Below are positions 28,281-46,400 of a stretch of 64,000 bases of DNA, in pieces. The position numbers were made by a program, and so were the translations under genes. How positions within the stretch are numbered: position 1 is the stretch's first letter; every line of letters starts with the position of its first letter. The stretch is taken from NCBI GenBank assembly GCA_963701855.1, contig CAVPBK010000006.1, positions 32,001 through 96,000 of the forward strand, written 5' to 3'. The notes beneath the pieces are model-generated. The model saw only the letters and a list, made by a program, of their open reading frames with translations, had not been told where the DNA came from and did not search any database. This stretch comes from Nitrospirota bacterium (GTDB taxonomy: Bacteria; Nitrospirota; Nitrospiria; Nitrospirales; Nitrospiraceae).

Positions 28281-31200
28281 CTATTTCGAACGAGCCACGG
28301 CGGGGAGGTTGGCACGAAGGTCACCCTCCCCGCTTCTCGAATCCCGTCCGATCATAGACCGCACCACCGCCCCATCGCGAAACACCACGAAATTCGACGG
28401 CACCGCAGGCACGCGCGGACCCGGCAAGATGACTCCTGCGAGATTCAACGGATCGCTGGCAGACAGTTTGATGTCGTGAGAGGCAGCACCCAACGCGTTC
28501 CGTTTTCTCGCCGCCCGTAATGATTCGACGGCTTCCGGCAACGCGAATTGCTCCCCTGTAAAGCCGCTCACAAACCTCCCCCCACGGATCTCACCTTGCA
28601 ACTCCATCCGACGATACTGCACCAGCAGATCGCGCCAGGACTGAACCAGAGACTCACGTGCCAGCAGATCACGGAAGACGACTCCGTAACGACGCAACAA
28701 TTGGCGCGCGACGGGCTCAGCAGGGAAGTGCTGAGTACTGAGTGCTGAGAGCGGACGGTCAATGACATTTCGGAGCAGCGACCAACGGCCGGCGGCATGG
28801 CGAGGCCGGCGCGACCGCTCTCGTCCTTCCGCACGGCGGCGACGCGGGTCCATGAGGGCACGGAGATTGTCGAAACCGTCGGCCGTAACCAAGCCGGCGG
28901 CCACGAGTTCCCAGAGTCCTTCTTCTACTTCTGTCGGAAGATGGCTGGTCATCCGCACGAGGTCGGCAAAGAAGCTCGCACCTCGCTCGTGTAAGGCACG
29001 ACGCAGGTCTTGCGCCACGGAACTCAACTGGGCAAACGGGTCAGGCCCATGCGGTGTTGCGTCATCGTGGAAAACAGCCCTCAACCATTCGCTCTCTTCT
29101 CGTGGAAAGATACTAATTGGGGCCACACTCGTCGGGATAATCCGGCGTCGTTCAAGCTCGCCACCGTGCGCAAGCCGTGGATGAGGAGACAGCCTGCCCC
29201 AGCTGACTGCCCCGCTCAGACAGAGTCGGTCCAAAAACTCCGGTTCATACTTTGCCAGCCTCGCCCGGAGCAGATGCGGCTCCCAGGCCGAGGCGGCCGC
29301 TTCAAAACCGGCCAGTTGCGCGACGACGTCCAAGAGACCGGCCTCGCCATGCAGACGCGACCCAGGTGAAACATGTTGCCATTGAAATAAAAATTGCATG
29401 AACTCGGCCGCAGTCACCGGCTCAACGTCTTTTCGCAGTCTGCCAATGGTCAGGCGATGAATCCGCGCCAGCAGTCGACGGTGGCAAAATTCGGGCGCTC
29501 CAGCGCCCGACAGTGCTGAGTGCTGAGTTCTGAGTGCTGAGTTAGGTCGAAAACTGGCCACGGAGGATTTGACCTGATGCTTCGAGGCGAATTAATGATT
29601 GATCAATCGCCTGAGTCGGACAATGCAATCGCGTCGCGAGTTCGATCGCCGTCGTCGGCCCGATGCTTTCCATCCAGCCAAGCACAACGGCATCGAGCGT
29701 CGTATCATCGCCAGACACAAACATCGATTGAATTTGGACCCGATGCTCCGTCGCCACCCATCCTCGTACTTCTTGCGCCTCACCTCTCACGTTGAGTTCA
29801 ACCGCACGCCCCTCCTCGATCAAGGGCGGCAGGTGGATCGCCCAGTCCTGTACTTCCTCGACCGGCAGCCAGAGCAACGTCAGCAAGGCATCGTGCAATT
29901 CATCCGGATCGCGCACGACGGGCCAGGACTCCCTCAGCACTTCCTCAATCGCTGCTGGGTCCAGCGCCCCGACCTCGCCGGCCAATTGAGCCGGAAGCGT
30001 ACGCCGCATCTCCACCGCCCGCGCCCGCCGCTCTTCCAACGGCGCATCGTCGAGAAACGCATAGGGGTTGGCATTCAAGATCTCGTGCGAGAACGGAGAC
30101 GGCATCGGCGTATCGACCGCCACACAGCTGATGGCCCCAGCTTCAATCCGCTTGAGGAGCGCGGTCAGCCCATCGAGATCCATCGCCTCGGTGAAACAGT
30201 CCCTCAACGTCTCATTCACGAGCGGATGATCCGGAATCTGGCGAGTCCGTTCGCCGACAATATTGTCCTGACAGGCCATCGCGTCAGGGAAGACGGCGCC
30301 AAGCAGATCCTCCGCCTTCATCCGTTGAATCTGTGGGGGAACCTTTTTGCCATGAGAGAATCGCAGCAAGACCAACGAACGGCTGACATTCCAGCGCCAG
30401 CGCGTCATAAACATCGGGGCCTGGAGCACGGCGGGAAGCAAGACCTCACGAAGCGTATGGCTGTGCAAGAACCCGAACACCGAATCGAGCGGGAAACTGT
30501 GCTTCTCGCCCAGCGAAATCACGATCCCGTTGTCGGTCGCCGCAGCCTGCAGTTCGAAATCGAAGGTCACGCAGAACCTCTTCCGCAAGGCGAGGCCCCA
30601 GGCCCGGTTGATCCGCCCCCCGAACGGCGTATGCAAGACCAGTTGCATCCCGCCGCTTTCATCGAAGAACCGTTCTGCGACGATTGTCTCCTGCGTCGGC
30701 AGGGTTCCCAGAACCGCGATACCGGCGGCGATGTAGGCGACAGCTTGCTCCGCGCCACGTTGATCCAGCGCGCATTCACTTTTGAGCCAGCTGATCGCTG
30801 ATCGCTGATGGCTGATAGACGGATCAGAAGAAGATAACCGCTCGGCAATCGCTTGCCGCAATGTTGCCACCTCCAGAGAGAGTTCCGCCGTGCGCGACGG
30901 AGCTTCGCCACGCCAGAAGGGAATGTTGGGTGGTGCGCCATGAGCGTCTTCCACCCGCACCTTGCCCATCTCTACGCCCTTAATCCGCCAGGAAGTATTC
31001 CCCAGCAACATGATGTCGCCGGCCAGACTCTCTACCGCAAAGTCTTCGTCGACCGATCCCACGACCGTGCCTTCAGGCTCTGCGACCACGGCATAGTTCG
31101 CTGTGTCTGGGATGGCCCCACCGGACGTGATCGCCGCCAGTCGCGCCCCTCGCCGACCTTTGATCCGACGATTGATCCGATCGTGATGCAGATAGGCCAG

Positions 31201-32679
31201 ACCCCGCCCGCGATTGGTCGCAATTCCATCCGCCAACATCCGCACCACCTGATCGAACTCAGAACGAGCCAAGGCCCGATAGGGATCGGCCCGGCGGCAG
31301 AGATCGAACAGGTCGTCTTCCTGCCAGGTCTGCGTCGCTGCCGCTGCTACCAATTGCTGCGCCAAAATATCGAGCGGCGCCGACGGCACGGCAATGCGGT
31401 CCAAGACTCCTGTTCGAATCGCGCGCATCAGCGCCGCACATTCGAGCAGGTCATCCCTCGTCATTGCGAAGAGACGGCCCTTGGGAATGGCTTTGATCCA
31501 GTGACCGGCCCGGCCAACCCGCTGCAGACAGGTGGCAATCGCGCGAGGTGAACCGATCTGACAAACGAGATCCACGGCGCCGATATCGATGCCGAGTTCC
31601 AGCGAGGCCGTGGCGACAACGACGCGCGTCTTGCCGCTCTTGAGCCGTTCTTCCGCCGACAGGCGAATCTGGCGCGAAAGGCTGCCATGGTGCGCCGCGA
31701 CGGCATCGAAGCCTAAGTCCCGCAGCCGCTCTTCCAGGGAGTGCGATACTCGCTCAGCAAGACGCCTCGTATTGACGAAGACCAAGGTCGAGCGATGCTG
31801 CCGGACCAGTTCGGCGACGCGATCATAGACATCAGCCCAAATGGCGTTCGTGGCCACGGCACTGAGTTCGTCTTTCGGTACTTCCACGGCCAGATCCATC
31901 TCACGCTTATGGCCCACGTCGATGATGGTGCAAGGGGTAGAGCTGCTAGCCAACGGAAAGTGCTGAGTGCTGAGTGCTGAGCTAAGGACGCTTGCCGGTT
32001 GAGGGTTGACGGTTGACGAGGTCTGATTCCCGACGAGGAACCGCGCGATGGTTTCGATTGGCCGTTGGGTCGCAGAGAGCCCGATGCGTTGAGGTTTCGT
32101 GAGCGTCAGCGCTTCCAATCGCTCCAGCGACAGAGCCAGATGGGCGCCGCGTTTATTCGGCGCAACGGCGTGGATTTCATCGACGATAACGGTCCGGACC
32201 GTCTGCAGTAACCGGCGGCTTTTTTCTGCCGTCAATAAAATAAAGAGCGACTCCGGCGTCGTGACGAGAATATGGGGCGGCCGCTTGAGCATCTGCTGGC
32301 GCTCCGTCATCGGCGTGTCGCCGGTGCGGACCAGCACACGGAGTTCCGGCATCAAGAGCCCGGCAGACAGAGCTGCGGTACCGATTTCAGCCAGCGGCTG
32401 CTGGAGGTTTTTCTGGATGTCGTTGCTGAGCGCTTTCAGCGGCGAGACGTAGAGCACCTGCGTATGGTCGTCGAGTTCGCGCGCAAGGGCTTGTTTGAAA
32501 AGACGATCGATGCAAGAGAGAAAGGCGGCAAACGTCTTCCCGGAGCCGGTCGGCGCCGCAATCAGAACATCAGCCCCAGATTGAATGACTGGCCAAGCCT
32601 GAACCTGTACGTCGGTGGGCTGGCCAACCTGCTGGTGAAACCATTCGGCAATGAGAGGATGGAATCGAGAGAGGGGCAT
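28281..32679 (-). CDS. lhr: Lhr-family DEAD/DEAH helicase, split by one +1 frameshift at 29550-29553
   Basis: APTGSGKT, SPLKAL, TTPESL, DEIH, SAT, HHGSL, SLELGID, QRVGRAGH; the C-terminal ORF 28281-29561 continues in frame if one A is removed from AAAA. Confidence 0.9.
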
Positions 32680-32720
32680 GGCACGTGATCGTACCACGCT
32701 GCCAGAGGAAGCTCTACCGG

Positions 32721-38614: not shown

Positions 38615-39831
38615 ATGATGAAAGCCATTGCCATTCGCTCAGTGCGTGTCATCGACGGGACCGGTCGGACGATCGAGCGAGCCACGGTGATCGTTCGCGG
38701 AACCAAGATTGCCGCGGTCGGATCGGATCGAGACCTCTCCATCCCACATGGTGCGACCAAGATCGATGGCCGAGGACTCACGCTATTACCGGGCTTGATC
38801 GACTGTCATGTGCATCTCTGCCTCGGAGCTGAACCGGATGTCGTCGAGGCGATCGCCAAAGAGACGCCCACACTGACATTACTGAAATCAAGCCAGGCTG
38901 CGCGACAGACCCTGGAGGCAGGCTTCACCACTGTGCGTGACGTGGGGTCGCGAGACCACTCCATCTTTACATTGCAACGGGCTATCGATACAGGTCTCGT
39001 TCCCGGACCTCGCATTGTCGCGAGCAGGCCTGGCGATTTGCATGATCGGCGGCCACGCCCGGTTTATCGGTCAGGAAGTGGAAGGAGACAGAACAAGTCC
39101 GTTCCGTCGTGCGCGCGCAAATCTCCGCCGGGGCCACCGTCATTAAAGTCATTGCATCGGGTGGTGTCCTCACGCCCGGTACCTCGCCGGACCAGGCGCA
39201 AATGACCGTGGAGGAACTCCAGGCCGCCGTGGATGAAGCGCAGCAAGCCGGGAGGAAAGTCGCAGCCCATGCCCATGGATCGTCGGGGATGAAGAATGCT
39301 ATCCGCGCCGGAGTCCATTCGATCGAGCATGCCACGCTCATGGACACAGAAGCCGCGGCCATGATGAAACGGCAGGGTGTCTTCATGGTGCCGACACTCT
39401 CTGCGCTCGCTACCACTGCCGCCTGCCGACTCGGATGCGGCATTCCCGAAAGCGCCTTGGACAAAGCCAAATCCATGACGAAGCGCCATCAAGTAAGCTT
39501 CAAGAACGCTCTGCGGGACGGTATCCAGATTGCGATGGGCACGGATGCGGGGACGCCCTTTAACTTTCACGGCGAGAACGCTCAGGAGCTCGAGCGGATG
39601 GTCGCCTTCGGGATGAGCCCGATGCAGGCGATTCTCGCCTCGACCTCCGCTGCCGCACAGTTGATCGGGATTCAGGACCAGGTGGGAACGATCGAGAAGG
39701 GGAAACTGGCGGATCTCCTCTTATTCAAAGGCAATCCGCTTCGTCGCATCGACCTGCTACGCGATCGCAGCAGGATTATGGGCGTGATGCAGGCGGGCAA
39801 GTTTGTCGCAGGGCCTCTTTCAAGGACGTGA
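38615..39831 (+). CDS. Metal-dependent amidohydrolase (Xaa-Pro dipeptidase-like), two +1 frameshifts near 39021 and 39087
   Basis: PGLIDCHVH, GFTTVRDVG, GGH (middle frame), VAAHAHG, SIEHA, MGTDAG, GKLADL spread over three frames. Confidence 0.85.
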
Positions 39832-40298
39832 AACGTTACATGTATTAATCGGTACTTAATCGGACAGACAAGGTCAGATGAATTCGGGCCTCGAAGGACC
39901 GCTCCCGGCCACTTTGCGACAGTCGCTACGGCAAGCTCCACGCCGGAAAGGTGCCGTTCATTAGAGATGGTGCTCGCTTCGCGCTACGCTTGGCTGGATT
40001 GGGTCTGAGTCTGCTGGGGGAGGGTCGTCCGTTGGCTAATACGCGTGTCGGTGTCCACAAAACCTGCCCAAATGTCTTCCCGTACGTTCTCGAACTCATG
40101 TGACCTAGAACTCGACTCGAACCGTCCAGAAATCAGGAGATTGAGGACAGGTTTAGTCGCAGGACAAGCGGTTTAGGAAAGCGTTGTCACCACCCTACTC
40201 CAGCCTACTCAGACTCACTCAGGCCTACTGCAGCCAAGGTGGTCTTTCCCTGATTTTGTGGACACCTTCCGTGCATAATCAGCGAAGGGAGGTGCCTC

Positions 40299-40580
40299 AT
40301 GGGCCAGCAGCGACGGAGTTTCACGCCAGAGTTTAAGCAGGAAGCCGTGGACTTGTGCCGACGCAGTGGGAAGAGCGAGTGCCAGGTGGCGCGGGAGTTG
40401 GGCATTCCCCAACCGACGTTCAATCGATGGATGCGGCAAGCGGCGGGGGCGCCCCAAGGATCCCACAGCTTTCTGGCGACCGAGGAACTCAAGGTCTTGC
40501 GGCGAGAAGTCGAGCAACTCCGCATGGAGCGCGACATCCTAAAAAAAGCCGTGGCCTTCTTTGCCAAGGAGTCGGGATGA
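40299..40580 (+). CDS. IS3 transposase OrfA (HTH)
   Basis: FTPEFKQEAV..VARELGI..ERDILKKA; A7G slippery site at 40541-40548. Confidence 0.92.
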   Translation: MGQQRRSFTPEFKQEAVDLCRRSGKSECQVARELGIPQPTFNRWMRQAAGAPQGSHSFLATEELKVLRREVEQLRMERDILKKAVAFFAKESG

Positions 40581-41467
40581 GGTATCGCTTCATCCAGGCG
40601 GAGAAGGCCGCGTATCCCGTGGAGGTCTTGTGTCGCGTCCTCAGCGTGGCCCGGAGCGGCTATTACGCCTGGTGCCGTCGTCCGCTCGGTGCACGCGCGC
40701 AGCAGAATCAATGGCTGGTCACGCATATTCGGACCTGTTACCAGGCGTCGCGCGGCCGCTATGGGAGTCCGCGGATTCATCAGGATCTGCGCGCCCACGG
40801 GTTGCGGGTCGGCCGCCATCGCGTGGCTCGGCTCATGCGGCTGCATGGGCTCCGCAGTGTTCGACGGCGGAGCTGGCGCCCACCGGCCAGCGCGCTTCCC
40901 GCGGTGGTGCGGGCGAACGTCTTGCGACGAGCCTTCACCGCCACACGGCCGAATGAGAAGTGGGCCGCCGACATCACCTACGTGCCCACACGCCAGGGTT
41001 GGCTCTATCTCGCCGTGGTGATCGATTTGTACTCGCGGCGGGTGGTCGGCTGGGCCATGGATGCACAGCAGACGATCGCGCTGACGCTGACGGCTTTAGA
41101 GATGGCGCTGCACCAACGGCCTGTGTTGGCCGGGCTCCTGCACCATTCGGATCGAGGCAGCCAGTATGGCGCGGTGGCCTATCAGCACCGGTTAGTCAGC
41201 TGCGGAATCCGGGGCTCGATGAGCCGCCCCGGCAATTGCTGGGACAATGCCGTCGTGGAGAGCTTCTTTGCTACGTTGAAGACCGAGCTGATTCACCGAC
41301 GGCAGTATGCGACTCGCCAAGAAGCCCGCGCCGACATCTTTGAGTACGTAGAGGGCTTCTATAATCGAAGCCGACGCCATTCGCGTTTGGGGTATCGGAG
41401 CCCGATGGACTTTGAGCATCAATACCCATACCATCAATCGGGGGCGTCTACCGTATGGACGCCGTGA
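40577..41467 (+). CDS. IS3 transposase OrfB (DDE integrase core)
   Basis: WAADITY, DLYSRRVVGW, HSDRGSQY, DNAVVESFFATLKTE; -1 frame relative to OrfA. Confidence 0.93.
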   Translation: MRYRFIQAEKAAYPVEVLCRVLSVARSGYYAWCRRPLGARAQQNQWLVTHIRTCYQASRGRYGSPRIHQDLRAHGLRVGRHRVARLMRLHGLRSVRRRSWRPPASALPAVVRANVLRRAFTATRPNEKWAADITYVPTRQGWLYLAVVIDLYSRRVVGWAMDAQQTIALTLTALEMALHQRPVLAGLLHHSDRGSQYGAVAYQHRLVSCGIRGSMSRPGNCWDNAVVESFFATLKTELIHRRQYATRQEARADIFEYVEGFYNRSRRHSRLGYRSPMDFEHQYPYHQSGASTVWTP

Positions 41468-41788
41468 TGATCGTCGATCCTGGATCAATGGTGTGCGTCG
41501 ATTTTGCGGCGCGCACGCATGAGATCGCGGTTGGCTTCACATGGAGATGGTCCACACAGAAACCAGTGTCTATAAAATCGGGGGAAGATCAAGGTTTGCG
41601 CTGAACTCGAACTTGGCTGGAGTAGGCTGGAATGAGCTGGAGTGAGTTGGAGTTGAGCACAAAATGAGCACAATTACGATGCCACAACGTAGCGCACGAC
41701 TAACTTCTGCACCCATCTGATTAAGCCCCTTGTCCACAATTTAAGCGGGGCAAAACACGGAATTAATCAAAGGGGTCTTCCCCCCTTC

Positions 41789-42265
41789 TTAACTTTTCCT
41801 TGGCATCACTGGAGCAATCATTTCGGTCGAATCTTCAAGACTGAAGCTCTCTCTAGCCTTGCAATTCAACCCAGAAGTCGCATCGCACTCCAGGTGGAGG
41901 GCCACATAGGTGCCAATCATTCTATAAAGGCTAGCGTGCCAAGCCCCGATCTTCCCGTCAGGTAAACTGAAGCACACACTCCATTTATAGACTCTATGAG
42001 CGCCGATGAACTGTACGAGCTTCAGCTTGTAGACCGGGTCAAAGTGGAATATTCCTTCTTCCGTTGTCCGAGTATCGAGGACCGGGTCATCACAGGTACC
42101 CCCCAGTGATAATGTGACCATCGTGCTCTTCATCGGCTGCCCCTGCTGAATCAGAGTCCCGATTAATTCTGGGGAATATGGGTCTGGGTAAGGAATCGGG
42201 ATACAGCCAGCCACGAGGGAAGAAAACAGGAGAAGAAGAACCCCAATAGTCAACCTGGTTTGCAT
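41789..42265 (-). CDS. Putative lipoprotein
   Basis: Hydrophobic signal with VAGC lipobox; AT-richer region. Confidence 0.6.
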   Translation of the reverse strand: MQTRLTIGVLLLLFSSLVAGCIPIPYPDPYSPELIGTLIQQGQPMKSTMVTLSLGGTCDDPVLDTRTTEEGIFHFDPVYKLKLVQFIGAHRVYKWSVCFSLPDGKIGAWHASLYRMIGTYVALHLECDATSGLNCKARESFSLEDSTEMIAPVMPRKS

Positions 42266-42604
42266 AAGGATTGAATGGCGCTGCCTTGAATTTCGTTTCT
42301 GAAGGGACACACAATTCTTTCTGAACCTATCACAGGAGTAAACGCTCGCCTACGAAATGCACCGCTTTTGACGCAAAATTAGAGTTCTCGTGCCAAACTC
42401 GAATCTTCGAGCCCTAGCTTTTCATACCGTTATTCCAAACAAAATGAAGAATCGCAAAGCATTTGCTGACAAAGACGGCTGGCTTGGGGGTGTCAAAAAC
42501 ATTGTGAAGAACTAGACGCTATCCTTCGGGTTACGTTGAAGATTCATGGTAGCTGTTGAAGAGGTCAAAAAGAACTGATTTTGATCCTGCTGTTTCTCGT
42601 TTGC

Positions 42605-43072
42605 TCAGCTGACACGCGGACTCGACACCATACTGCTTGTGCTCGTTAACCCAGCCCATATCAAATAAATGTTGAAAACGACAAACGTGGCAGCCACACC
42701 CTGTGCACCTGGCCACCCAAAGGGTGTCTCACGAAATATCTCCAGATAGAGTACGCCTATAGGTGTAAGTGGAGCGAGAACATACGTCCATGGAAGGCAT
42801 AATACTAAGCCTAGCAATCCATAAATCAGACCATGCCACAGCATCACGCGTGGCAGAATAGCACCTTCCCTCATCTTCACATATACGATCCCGTAGAAAG
42901 CAATCATCGATAAATTAGGACCAAATCTCCAGGCAACATCAAAGATTCCGCGTACCATCCCTAAAGCATTTCTATACTCTGGAGAACTCAGTGCTAGGAC
43001 GAAATCAAGAGCGGCGAATGCACCCAGACATGCGAACCCAACCCGCACACAACCGATCTTTAGCTTACTCAT
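42605..43072 (-). CDS. Hypothetical multi-pass membrane protein
   Basis: 155-aa ORF with about 4 hydrophobic segments; AT-richer region. Confidence 0.55.
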   Translation of the reverse strand: MSKLKIGCVRVGFACLGAFAALDFVLALSSPEYRNALGMVRGIFDVAWRFGPNLSMIAFYGIVYVKMREGAILPRVMLWHGLIYGLLGLVLCLPWTYVLAPLTPIGVLYLEIFRETPFGWPGAQGVAATFVVFNIYLIWAGLTSTSSMVSSPRVS

Positions 43073-43488
43073 CTACATCTTCCCCAACAGAGATTTGAGT
43101 AGGTGCACTGCCTCACGTAACTCCAGAAGCCTCCTACGGTAACCATTGGAATAACGATTATTCCCAACACATGTGTTTTCAAGCCTACCACAAGGCCTGA
43201 AACACGCTGGAGGGAATTGTCTTATTCCGCCTTATGACGTAGGAAGGATGACAGTGGAACTTGAAAGCACTGGTTGAAAGAAATGAAGAGGATTGAAGGT
43301 CAATTTCATTTGTTTTTGGACCAGCATCAGCATAAGTCAAATTCCTTGAGAAATCGACCAACTTTGGGCTGGCATTTTAGATGGGGATTTTGACAAGGGG
43401 GTATTTGGGATTTTCGGGAAGTTGACACCCCGTGGGATCCCGATGGTGCCGTCATTCGATTGAACCACCTGATAGCCGTCGGTCGTGT

Positions 43489-43517
43489 ACTTCTGCTTTG
43501 GGTCGAAAGCGGTCATT
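43489..43517. other. Putative site-specific recombination site 1 (11-6-11)
   Basis: ACTTCTGCTTT-GGGTCG-AAAGCGGTCATT. Confidence 0.5.
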
Positions 43518-43644
43518 GCCTCGGTGACCGGCACGGAAACGGATCCGCAGGGTTATTCGCGGCAGGTGAAAACGCGGCGTGCCGCTGGCGTGCTCGTGGC
43601 GGCGGCCAGGCTCGCCGCGCAAGCCGTCGGTGCGCCACCGGCGT

Positions 43645-44367
43645 TCAGTCTTCGACGCCCACGCCTCTCACGATGAGCACCGCATAGTCCTGCTTCGTGC
43701 AGCCCTCGACCGGAGGCATCGCTCCCCCTGACGCAACTGGAAACGCCGTCTTCTGCGCGTTTGCCGGCGAGCACGAACCACCAACCGCCGCCGGTGTATA
43801 ACGCGCTGAGCGGCAGGCCAAGTGCGTCACATCGTAGAGCGTCGCGCCTTTATCAAGCTCCCAGCGCCTATCACCATTCTTGTCGGCGGGATGAATGGTC
43901 AGCACAGCCGTCACCTCGCGGTTACCCGTGACCAAGTATTTGCCAGGAGGGAGCGGAAAGGTCGGCTGCTCCATAATCAAGCCGTGTTCCTCCAGCCACC
44001 AGTCCGTGCCGTCAAATTTCCAGCGCGCCGGAGCGACGCCACCTGCATCCTTCAACCGTTGATAGTGGTTCAGCTCGACGCCCCGAGGACCCGGGTCCAG
44101 AGGCCACAGACCCCACGATTGCGCGCCGCTCCCGGAGGTCGCACCTGGATCGCCCAACGCCGCGATGAACTGCGTTGATATGCGCTGGAACTTCGTTTGA
44201 CCTCCGCCTTCGGCGTGAACCGGCTGAGCCACGGCGGCTATCGTTACCAGCAAAGCCGTCGCAAGGCATGCGCGGCGAATGAGGCGCTGCGTTCTCCTCG
44301 TGAGCGCCAACACGGCACCTCGCTGTACATGGGTTCGCACCCCGATCGTTCTGAGTTCTGAAATCAT
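43645..44367 (-). CDS. Hypothetical exported protein (cassette-like gene)
   Basis: Signal-peptide-like segment ending PVHA; GC-rich relative to the left flank. Confidence 0.75.
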   Translation of the reverse strand: MISELRTIGVRTHVQRGAVLALTRRTQRLIRRACLATALLVTIAAVAQPVHAEGGGQTKFQRISTQFIAALGDPGATSGSGAQSWGLWPLDPGPRGVELNHYQRLKDAGGVAPARWKFDGTDWWLEEHGLIMEQPTFPLPPGKYLVTGNREVTAVLTIHPADKNGDRRWELDKGATLYDVTHLACRSARYTPAAVGGSCSPANAQKTAFPVASGGAMPPVEGCTKQDYAVLIVRGVGVED

Positions 44368-44447
44368 CTCTCGACTTTCCTTTCAGGACGGGTAAGCAAC
44401 AACTCGATCACCACAGTGTCCCCAATGGACCGCAAATCTACACCGCG

Positions 44448-44475
44448 AATGACCGTTTGGGTCGATAGCTGACAC
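44448..44475. other. Putative site-specific recombination site 2 (11-6-11)
   Basis: AATGACCGTTT-GGGTCG-ATAGCTGACAC, same spacer and orientation as site 1. Confidence 0.5.
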
Positions 44476-44570
44476 TGACTGCCGGCTCGAATCTGAACTA
44501 ATACACGTTAAACGTGAGACGTGTAAGGATTTCCGAGTTCAACACTGCACGTTTCACTTTCTTTTTACGT

Positions 44571-45213
44571 TTACCGCCTCTCGTAGAACAACTCCAGTGC
44601 GGCTGCAAAGCCCTTTAGTACGTCCTTTGCGAAACACGTCCTCAAGCTGTCCGCGTAGCGATCTGACGCCTCCCTCATCGTCTCGTTTGACCACGCCTTG
44701 GGACAATAGCATCTCCGTCGCCACTTCGAGGAGCCGCTGTTTGCGCCCCTCCATCTCAGCCGTGACCAGCTCTTCCATGACCTCCGATGCCCGCTCCTGA
44801 ATTATCTCTTCTTTAAACGTGTCGTACCCTTGATCCGCCACGGTCCGCTCATGAATCACGGCGAGTTCGGCTTTGATCCGCGTCACATTTTTCATCAAGA
44901 CCGCGAATATTTCCTTGCGCCCTTCATCGAAGAGCTTCTTCTCCATCTCGTCGAGGATGACGGCTGGATCTGGCGCTTCATCCCGCGCTGTTTCTTCTCC
45001 CCAATTGAGCCGGTCATAGCTCAGGCGCTTGCCCGGATCGCCGACGACTTCATAGGCGGCATTGATATCACGGATCTTGGCTTCGGCCTGCGTGCTATCG
45101 GGATTGCGGTCAGGATGGTGCTGAAAGACCAGCTTCCTGTAAGCCTTCTTGATCGCATCATCGGACGCGTCGCGCGAAACCCCCAACACTCGGTAGAAGT
45201 CAATTCGTGCCAT
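44571..45213 (-). CDS. DnaJ (J-domain) protein, +1 frameshift near 44611
   Basis: DFYRVLGV..AYRKL..HHPDRN; removing one base gives the ending KGFAAALELFYERR*; lacks the zinc finger, so not canonical dnaJ. Confidence 0.82.
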
Positions 45214-45259
45214 AGCTGGCGAACTATAGCATGGGGCTTCAGCAGGCTTCACCTTGACT

Positions 45260-46400
45260 CCCTGGCAGAAGCTCCCCAGCCTGTCGCCATCCATTTATTG
45301 TCAGCGAGCAGGCCATCTACGGCGGAACAAATCGGCTGGTACGCGGGATCATCTTTTCAATTTTTCTCATCGGCTAGGCCATCGGCGGAATCACATTCGG
45401 CATCCAGGCCGACCGCTTCGGTCGGACTAAGGTCTTGATCGCGACCATCATCTATGCCGTCTTCATCGGAGCCGCTGCATTATCGGAGACATGGTGGCAC
45501 CTCGCCATCTATCGATTCTTTTCGGCGCTTGGCATCGGGGGTAATGGGCGGCCGGCGTAGCGATCGTCGAGGAAACCTGGCCGGAAAAACGGGCAAAGGC
45601 CGCAGAGATTTTCCAATCCGCCTGAGCTGTCGGGTTCTTTCTGGCCGCCACATTCAACCTTACGCTTAAAGAAACGTACGGATGGCGGGGGCTCTTTCTC
45701 GCCGGCATCCTGCCCGCATTTGTAGCCCTATTTCGTTCGATGGTGGGTAAAGGAACCAGAACGTTGGACTCACGCACAGGAACAACAGACCATCTCTCTC
45801 ACAGCAGTTTTTGAGGGTAACTTACGACGAGGAACCTTGGTGGGTTCGGCCTTAGCCTTCGTGGCTGTAGTTGGCCTCTGGGGTTCGACGAACTGGGCTC
45901 CGACACTCACCCGCGAGCTGCCCGACCTGAAGGGACAGGATCCCGCTATCCTGACAAAATACGTGAGCTACGCCATTATGGCTCTGAACGCGGGAGCGAT
46001 TTTCGGCTATCTGGGCTTCGGCCGCGGCCTGTCTTCTCCTTCATGTGCGTGGGCAGTTTCGTGATGCTCCCGATTACCTTTCTCGTTCCATCCAGCTACA
46101 GTGGTGTGCTTATGCTGCTGCCGATCCTCGGATTCTTTAACAACGGCATCTTTAGCGGGCTTCCCATTTATCTGCCCGAACTCTATCCGACCGGACTTCG
46201 TGCCACCGGCGCCGGATTTTGCTTCACAGCGGGACGTATCCTGGCTTCCGCCTAGCCATTCCTGACAGATTGGCTTGTCACAACTTTCGACACCTTTGGG
46301 CGAGCCACCAGCACTGTGGCATTGATCTATCCGGCAGGATTTGCGGTCTTAATCTTTGCACCGGGGACAGGGGCAAACTACTGCCGGAATAACTGATTCT
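45260..46400 (+). pseudogene. Decayed MFS transporter
   Basis: Fragments ETWPEK, YGWRGLFLAG, GFFNNGIFSG..YLPELYPT.LRATGAGFCF scattered over several frames with stops. Confidence 0.8.

Follow-up and report, generated by a model that had tools for sequence, protein, structure and literature searches.

The DNA analysed here (hereafter the window) is a 64,000-nucleotide stretch from a bacterium of the Nitrospiraceae (phylum Nitrospirota), contig CAVPBK010000006.1, positions 32,001 to 96,000 (G000:C6:32001-96000 in our numbering, where G denotes genomes, C contigs and L fetched loci or records; G000 is the source genome, 4.3 Mb in 15 contigs, and unprefixed positions are those of the window). It contains a single-gene cassette that is a real insertion into pre-existing sequence: positions 43506-44458, together with one copy of the hexamer GGGTCG, were added to an element that is found uninterrupted elsewhere in the same genome. 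In the genus Nitrospira this GGGTCG core is a joint at which different blocks of sequence have been combined. The account that we favour, and to which we give about even credence, is that a non-autonomous cassette was placed here by conservative site-specific recombination, with an enzyme acting in trans that was most likely a tyrosine recombinase or integrase.

The cassette is delimited by two directly oriented sites, both hybrids of a target arm and a cassette arm around the core. Site 1 (43489-43517, plus strand) consists of the target arm ACTTCTGCTTT (43489-43499), GGGTCG (43500-43505) and the cassette arm AAAGCGGTCATT (43506-43517), while site 2 (44448-44475, plus strand) consists of the cassette arm AATGACCGTTT (44448-44458), GGGTCG (44459-44464) and the target arm ATAGCTGACAC (44465-44475). 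An earlier sequence-only reading of the window had described two such 11-6-11 sites, with inner arms that were reverse complements but for one base, around a single GC-rich gene, and each of these descriptions is borne out. A repeat search recovered the inverted inner arms (43507-43517 and 44448-44458; 11 nt, 91% identity, differing by one inserted G) as well as a 25-nt direct repeat (43497-43521 and 44456-44480; 80% identity, first 10 nt exact, spacing 959), and the sites enclose a single long open reading frame (ORF) in DNA of 62-68% GC, as against 44-49% to the left and 50-53% to the right. When the region 42800-45200 was shuffled with dinucleotide composition preserved, a similar pair (identical 6-mers 300-2000 bp apart, with inner 11-mers as complementary as those observed) arose in one of 300 shuffles; the real region has one. 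A third site that had been suspected at 43466-43480 has no GGGTCG core, although the position does mark the left edge of a conserved 38-nt module discussed below. Extra arm-like copies at 43550-43561 and 43449-43460 were discarded, being no more frequent than background.

That the cassette is an insertion follows from an empty counterpart, for which the sequence-only reading had suggested a search. BLAST of 41401-46400 against the whole genome aligned 43307-43510 with C6:424227-424429 (92.6% identity) and 44459-44500 with C6:424419-424460 (90.5%), two matches which overlap by 11 bp at a single core. The copy at C6:424227-424460 is contiguous and reads ACTTCGGCTCA-GGGTCG-AGAGCTGACAC, with one core, where the window has GGGTCGA at both ends of the cassette; compared with that copy, the window has gained about 953 bp and a second GGGTCG(A). 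The interrupted target element occupies 43307-43505 on the left and 44465-44500 on the right (both plus strand), and recurs uninterrupted in G014:C32 and, diverged to the right of the core, in G023:C33. Within its own genome the site was found only at the two ends of the cassette and in the empty copy, that is, at one cassette and one empty site.

Inverted termini, a flanking direct repeat of 6-10 bp and a matching empty site would also suit a cargo-carrying miniature transposon with inverted ends of 11-12 bp, moved by a DDE transposase in trans, with GGGTCG(A) as a sequence-specific target duplication. Miniature inverted-repeat transposable elements are recognised by terminal inverted repeats, a varying target-site duplication and many copies in both orientations. 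Here the flanking hexamer is asymmetric, identical at all insertions and fixed in orientation relative to the cargo, the genome holds a single copy and no transposase element with matching ends, and blocks without these ends use the joint too. We accordingly consider this explanation quite improbable.

Relatives place the joint with some precision. In a survey of 30 genus loci carrying the whole cargo gene, 17 retain a site where the window has site 2, with the right partner AAAGCGGTCGTTTGATG ('R-A') in seven, AAAGCAGACGTTGAG ('R-B') in five, ATAGCTGACAC in three (the window counted) and others in two; G082 and G084 supply more right partners. Right junctions of the form GCGAATGACCGTTTT-GGGTCG-Y exist with seven kinds of Y, and left junctions of the form X-GGGTCG-AAAGCGGTCAT with at least nine different X flanks (the window with its 38-nt module, G010, G023, G065:C96, G083, G094, G093 and, twice, G065:C261). 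Several X arms (GAATGTCGCAATT, GGAATGACTGGATC, AACGTCCGCTTT) resemble the cassette's own right arm, as is expected where another block ends. In every junction examined, context-specific sequence begins or ends at GGGTCG and the orientation of the gene relative to the asymmetric core is constant. Such constancy is to be expected if strands are exchanged through an asymmetric overlap, but not if a transposon with inverted ends has moved. Complete palindromes, GACCGTTTTGGGTCGAAAGCGGTC, are found at the upstream end of the gene in G072, G089 (twice) and G092, and with one or two mismatches in others; relatives with an R-A or R-B partner thus have, as a natural site, the near-palindromic junction that had been predicted for an excised circle.

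Blocks other than this cassette use the same core. In G065:C261 the cassette's left-end module (43506-43612 in the window, plus strand, with the first ~83 nt conserved and a minus strand ending ATG ACC GCT TTC GAC CC) occurs twice, as its 83-nt conserved part plus core, and bounds a 2.75-kb block with different cargo, namely a Tn3 transposase fragment and a toxin-antitoxin pair of a Gp49-type toxin and a helix-turn-helix (HTH) protein. The 38-nt module then follows three times in one orientation, each time before a different gene. Among the 85 genomes of the genus the left-end module was found in 27 places in 24 genomes, mostly adjoining the 240-aa gene of the cassette. A right partner starting GAAGCAGCCGTTCAGAAC ('R-E') lies at the core in seven loci; its copies in G047:C16 and G086:C84, which encode a two-component system (LuxR response regulator and histidine kinase), are 99% identical over at least 1.5 kb from the core and have unrelated left flanks. 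G086:C84 in turn shares a left block with G065:C96, a carrier of the 240-aa cassette, up to CCGCTTTGGGTCG, beyond which the two diverge, and in a three-way alignment of these loci both switches, of the left and of the right block, fall at CCGCTTTGGGTCG. Allowing one mismatch at most, TTGGGTCGRAAGCRGNCRTT occurs in 38 places in 30 of the 85 genomes, compared with one for the reversed control. On the proposed question of whether sites delimit variable genes in arrays, the outcome was mixed: sites do bound other blocks, but the 85 genomes yielded no extended array of single-gene cassettes beside a dedicated recombinase, and those with the motif have one to three copies each.

The commonest left partner is the 38-nt module (43469-43506 in the window, plus strand), which ends in the core and has sharp borders: the fetched loci hold 27 distinct copies, judged with 30-nt flanks, and sequence varies on both sides of them. 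A reading of site 1 as a small ORF (minus strand, MTAFDPKQKYTTDGYQ) was rejected as a conserved feature. Variation in the module falls 24/35/13 by codon phase over 25 distinct copies, showing no codon periodicity, the frame and start codon are not kept across contexts, and the paralog in the window's own genome is frameshifted. In relatives (G065:C261, at L165+L171 3314, 5886 and 7410; L158, L159, L161, L162 and L011) the module precedes a conserved element of ~210 bp with two inverted copies of CTTAYGCSGATCSGCRTAAG, which ends at the palindrome GCCTAA-ACATTG-TTAGG with divergence beyond it; the window's genome has a single partial match of 44 nt. One module copy in G065 is followed (L165 3516-5042) by a 509-aa reverse transcriptase (RVT_1, YRDD) and a DUF1353 lipoprotein, and the former may be of the defence type.

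Shuffling of this kind might also come about without any dedicated enzyme, through homologous or microhomology exchange in which copies of a conserved leader or regulatory palindrome take part, in which case the joints would lie at the core merely because it is the stretch common to all copies. To the eye, the R-A (TACAAT) and R-E (TTGACA-N17-TAAGGAT) modules do resemble promoters reading towards the core, the 38-nt module lies upstream of same-orientation genes in G065:C261, the islands are mosaics of short repeats, and a unit shared by G003 and G092, described below, is bordered elsewhere. We nevertheless judge this explanation unlikely. Most joints share 7-13 nt, too few for RecA-type exchange; reciprocal homologous exchange does not yield a precise insertion with a duplicated core; and one point has been used in at least nine left and seven right contexts in a single orientation.

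Under the recombination that we favour, the mobile unit would be 43506-44458 plus one GGGTCG core, with a single cargo gene and no recombinase gene of its own. A circle bearing the near-palindromic site AATGACCG(T)TTT-GGGTCG-AAAGCGGTCATT would pair with a similar target, ACTTCNGCTNN-GGGTCG-ANAGCTGACAC; strands would be exchanged inside the asymmetric core of 6-7 bp, and the exchange would leave two hybrid sites in direct orientation. As no recombinase is encoded in the cassette, an enzyme from elsewhere would have to act in trans, most likely a tyrosine recombinase or integrase. The precise insertion, the duplicated asymmetric core, the hybrid arms, the constant orientation, an exchange point reused with many partners and the motif beside integrases elsewhere all fit conservative site-specific recombination with a 6-7-bp overlap, of the kind that tyrosine recombinases carry out.

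A single-strand enzyme that nicks hairpin loops matches this geometry almost as well. An HUH/Y1 enzyme (IS200/IS605 TnpA, a relative associated with repetitive extragenic palindromes, or a rolling-circle type) would nick the GGGTCG loop of a folded hairpin, the segment between direct loops leaving as a single-stranded circle with a perfect hairpin and entering the loop of another. As single-stranded DNA the complete sites of relatives are good hairpins, folding at -6.9 and -12.2 kcal/mol (z -2.0 and -3.4); the latter is the site of G082, where arms of ~17 nt form a palindrome of about 17-6-17 whose fold was matched by none of 200 shuffles. The inner arms of the cassette would pair once excised, some empty targets co-vary (GCTTT/AAAGC in most, GCTCA/AGAGC in the paralog of the window's own genome), and that genome encodes four Y1 transposases. 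For the two sites of the window the fold is no more stable than that of shuffled sequence (site 1, -3.4 kcal/mol, z -0.4; site 2, -2.9 kcal/mol, z +0.2). Pairing is poor in roughly half of the empty targets, conservation of the arms extends to their sequence and is not confined to pairing, the site is not a high-copy repeat, and no Y1 gene lies near any examined site. Moreover, IS200/IS605 elements are not known to have an identical core at both ends or inverted termini. On balance we think it improbable that such an enzyme was responsible.

The search for a tyrosine recombinase agrees with the earlier statement that the window encodes none: all 22 Phage_integrase matches of the genome lie outside it, the nearest on the contig at C6:6250-6678, and the sole transposase found in the window belongs to the IS3 family. 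In relatives, integrase genes were found 1.3-1.8 kb from the site in G003 and G092; the window's own genome encodes a homolog of the G003 integrase at C6:1143389-1144495. The site-near integrases are not integron integrases, scoring 42.7 bits or nothing against TIGR02249, for which the cut-off is 265. The integrase gene of G003 adjoins two small ribbon-helix-helix-like ORFs that face each other across AT-rich repeats (L168 8612-9075, G003:C1; judged by reading the DNA only), a layout typical of the regulatory switch of an integrative element. A different kind of enzyme, a DEDD recombinase of the IS110/IS1111 type, could in principle insert a circle at a hairpin target in trans. That family inserts site-specifically, often in palindromic repeats, via circular forms, and 11 IS110-family matches are present in the genome; no IS110 gene adjoins any examined site, however, and the cassette has nothing IS110-like, nor was homology seen, which leaves this option very unlikely.

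Outside Nitrospira, an exact scan of viral contigs (IMG/VR) with TTTGGGTCGRAAGCRGNC returned 34 records, about the number expected by chance on a rough estimate. In 28 of them GC just before the pattern completes the palindrome beyond what was searched, a further point in favour of hairpin-loop nicking. A second copy lies within 1.1-2.3 kb at six of the 34 loci (four inverted, two direct), against an estimated expectation of ~0.004 per locus; L196 and L212 among these six are one element in two records, and L200, which is weakly palindromic and inside an ORF, may be a chance occurrence. The direct pair of L202 encloses a response regulator and a transporter fragment. In three records (L200, L213 and L216) the motif lies ~80-200 nt past the 3' end of a tyrosine-integrase gene, and an integrase is encoded in 14 of 29 other viral records searched with the integrase family, mostly kilobases from the motif. 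Megaplasmids of Pantoea and Sinorhizobium also carry palindromes in which the arms of the motif enclose other loops. In annotations of proteobacteria, palindromes of this sort appear to have been translated as spurious ORFs, and the site of the Pantoea plasmid, ATGGTCCGCTTT-GTGCCA-AAAGCGGACATT, fits this pattern.

Several observations weigh against the account that we favour. Firstly, no recombinase is assigned to the site. The integrases of G003 and G092 are ~29% identical to each other and ~23-24% identical to the viral ones, while those of L200 and L216, at 88% identity, belong to one lineage and are not independent cases; furthermore, the idea that the motif serves as att at both ends of proviruses found no support in that simple form, since in two proviruses with the motif at one end no second copy was found at the integrase end. 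Secondly, 13 of the 30 genus copies have no right-end site, several through deletions that fuse the leader to the flank at the DnaJ-domain gene, and distant Nitrospira homologs are without both sites. As to the proposed check on where homology ends, between contexts it stops in or at GGGTCG; more distant Nitrospira homologs have no such flanks. Thirdly, G003, G092 and G089 (two copies) share a unit of ~1085 bp at 96% identity that overruns the site, reaching 113 nt into the upstream R-A module and 147 nt beyond the stop codon; with its borders beyond the site, this unit indicates that the gene has moved by other routes too. Finally, many of the genomes compared are metagenome bins, and chimeric assembly joins might be blamed for differing flanks; this is unlikely, as the sequence shared at joints (~10-20 nt) is below usual assembly word sizes. 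The earlier claim of a gene cassette mobilised in trans by a recombinase holds for the insertion and its joints, and a tyrosine-type enzyme is suggested by site geometry and by the motif beside integrases in other organisms.

The cargo gene (43645-44367, minus strand) is the only long ORF between the sites and encodes a protein of 240 aa to which no family is assigned, neither Pfam nor NCBIfam giving a match. Its product is putatively exported, judging by the name used in one source and by our reading of the N-terminus; an AlphaFold2 model built from a 20-sequence alignment (mean predicted local distance difference test score 41.7) was unusable. At E≤1e-5 it has 4306 homologs, the named ones being Nitrospira proteins called 'hypothetical' or 'conserved exported hypothetical'. 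Of the 85 genus genomes, 52 have the gene, at no more than three matching places in each, and it also occurs in Nitrospira beyond that set, including N. moscoviensis. Between site 2 and the gene start lies a leader (44368-44447, minus strand) that travels with the gene: homology starting in the gene runs out at ~44412 among distant copies and at 44454-44469 among close ones. No sigma-70-like promoter was detected in 43250-44650, and no Rfam family matched the window region or any of five related loci. In support of mobility, the cassette is 5-9 percentage points more similar across species than the adjoining DnaJ gene (92.5 vs 87.9, 93.6 vs 84.7 and 90.8 vs 85.2% identity). Of 80 loci from a wider collection, 22 show homology to the window as far as site 2; in the others it ends by ~44430, mostly at ~44403-44414 or within the gene, from which it follows that the gene family is older than its link to the sites. 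The islands of the G003, G092 and G089 group are patchworks of repeats 60-300 bp long.

As a small cassette with no integrase, set at a short palindromic joint, this unit is a variant of known cassette and att-site systems. Cis-mobilisable elements (CIMEs) and their tandem accretion at one att site are reportedly known from work on ICESt1 and ICESt3 of Streptococcus thermophilus. As in CIMEs, a cargo block without an integrase is enclosed by directly repeated hybrid att sites, there is an empty site, no recombinase gene lies inside and the integrase would act in trans; several blocks side by side at one site recall CIME accretion. Differences are that the unit here is of 0.95 kb with one gene and that the site, a short palindrome with a 6-bp core, is not the terminus of a tRNA gene or protein gene; a tRNA search of the window and of 19 viral loci was negative. 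Nor did this genome yield an autonomous integrative element sharing the att site and encoding a cognate integrase. Integron cassettes and clusters of attC sites lacking integron integrases (CALINs) likewise consist of promoter-less single-gene units, with one complete folded or palindromic site on the circle, hybrid sites between neighbours, variable cargo and mobilisation in trans. The site described here differs from attC in its length of 28-40 bp, its central exchange point and a boundary within GGGTCG, and this locus has no integron integrase or long array. Within the phylum only two CALINs are recorded by IntegronFinder 2.0, both in Ca. Nitrospira inopinata (PMC9024848).

The geometry of 11-6-11, small bounded modules and a recombinase encoded elsewhere are shared with the dif and pdif sites of XerC/XerD. 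The view of the sequence-only reading that the sites are neither attC nor dif is sustained by inspection, which found no RYYYAAC or GTTRRRY boxes (the attC consensus), and by a canonical dif-like site elsewhere in the genome. This probable chromosomal dif, GGGTCCGATAATATATATTATGTTAACT (G000:C11:48053-48080; six mismatches to E. coli dif), has no arm in common with the sites in the window. Modules of pdif are bounded by oppositely oriented, alternating sites, whereas the cores of the window and all those of G065:C261 point one way. Repetitive extragenic palindromic (REP) sequences and bacterial interspersed mosaic elements with their REP-associated tyrosine transposases (RAYTs), as well as derivatives of IS200/IS605, resemble the site in having short imperfect palindromes at block borders and possible recognition as single-stranded hairpins. 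REP sequences and REP doublets (REPINs) with a RAYT reach tens to hundreds of copies per genome; here one cassette and one empty site make up the low copy number, and no GTAG-type end is present. A REP-like high-copy repeat was rejected, the only loose palindrome match in the whole genome being unrelated. The 11-mer arm AAAGCGGTCAT has six exact copies in the genome, about the chance level by estimate, and no phylum-wide proliferation was seen, a generic CCGCTTT-N5-8-AAAGCGG hairpin occurring in 33 of 301 genomes, near the level of the reversed control, with mostly unrelated, terminator-like matches.

The motif beside integrases and around small blocks in unrelated proviruses and megaplasmids may indicate a wider short-site cassette exchange outside integrons. 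Tentatively, and with considerable doubt, we suggest that (G)NCNGCTTT-GGGTCG-AAAGCNGNC is the site of an integron-independent cassette-exchange system that spans several phyla and is absent from the searchable literature; text searches returned no relevant report of the arms, the motif or their translations, and searches on Nitrospira, gene cassettes and tyrosine recombinases returned integron papers only. Such a system would release promoter-less blocks, some as small as one gene, in circular form and insert them again wherever a copy of the site exists; the tyrosine integrases of genomic islands and prophages would exchange strands in the asymmetric 6-bp loop. In Nitrospira it would serve to carry a conserved exported protein and regulatory modules from one chromosomal hot spot to another. 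Nitrospira are key nitrifiers, hard to culture, and little is known of how their accessory genes move. The locus offers a testable joint, a 28-40-bp site with an occupied and an empty copy in one genome, and the natural catalogue of hybrid sites narrows the exchange point to 6-7 bp. The enzyme, if found, would explain part of the mosaicism of Nitrospira islands, and site and enzyme might make a compact pair for genetic tools.

The cassette lies at the right end of a variable island (39838-44562) between an amidohydrolase gene and a DnaJ-domain gene. These genes are adjacent in G015 (flanks 96% identical), G001 and G017, with 26-48 bp between homology blocks, which identifies 39838-44562 as an island; in G011 the 240-aa gene alone stands between them. 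The place is a chromosomal hot spot.

Further features of the island and its surroundings were noted in passing. An IS3-family element at ~40100-41590 (ORFs 40299-41467) shows the customary frameshift arrangement of an orfA (HTH_Tnp_1) overlapped by orfB (rve), and its final 191 bp (41401-41591) are 100% identical to C6:789308-789498. Beyond it, 41604-41680 holds a ~67-bp repeat of GAGCTGGAGT-like units, of which at least ten more copies lie on six contigs at 80-94% identity, and the larger block 41604-42581, which includes a 173-aa ORF, has a second copy at C6:408125-409111 (93%). The amidohydrolase gene (38615-39831) consists of two overlapping ORFs (38615-39205 and 39109-39831) and is possibly frameshifted or a pseudogene; one 387-aa ORF spans the region in G093. 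An Lhr-type helicase (28281-32697) is similarly divided into ORFs 29542-32697 and 28281-29561 with a 20-nt overlap, and may be split or frameshifted. In G012 the 74-bp left edge of the island is split by a ~180-bp insert (L177, G012:C23, ~760-935) whose 17-bp inverted ends, CCCACATTATTCATGAA and TTCATGAATAATGTGGG, give it the appearance of a miniature inverted-repeat element. Lastly, the empty copy of the site sits in an apparent integrated element (G000:C6:404000-432000) with a tyrosine integrase at 417469-418518, identified by a domain match, and, to judge from the starts of the ORFs alone, one ORF of 904 aa resembling a primase and another resembling a formylglycine-generating enzyme.

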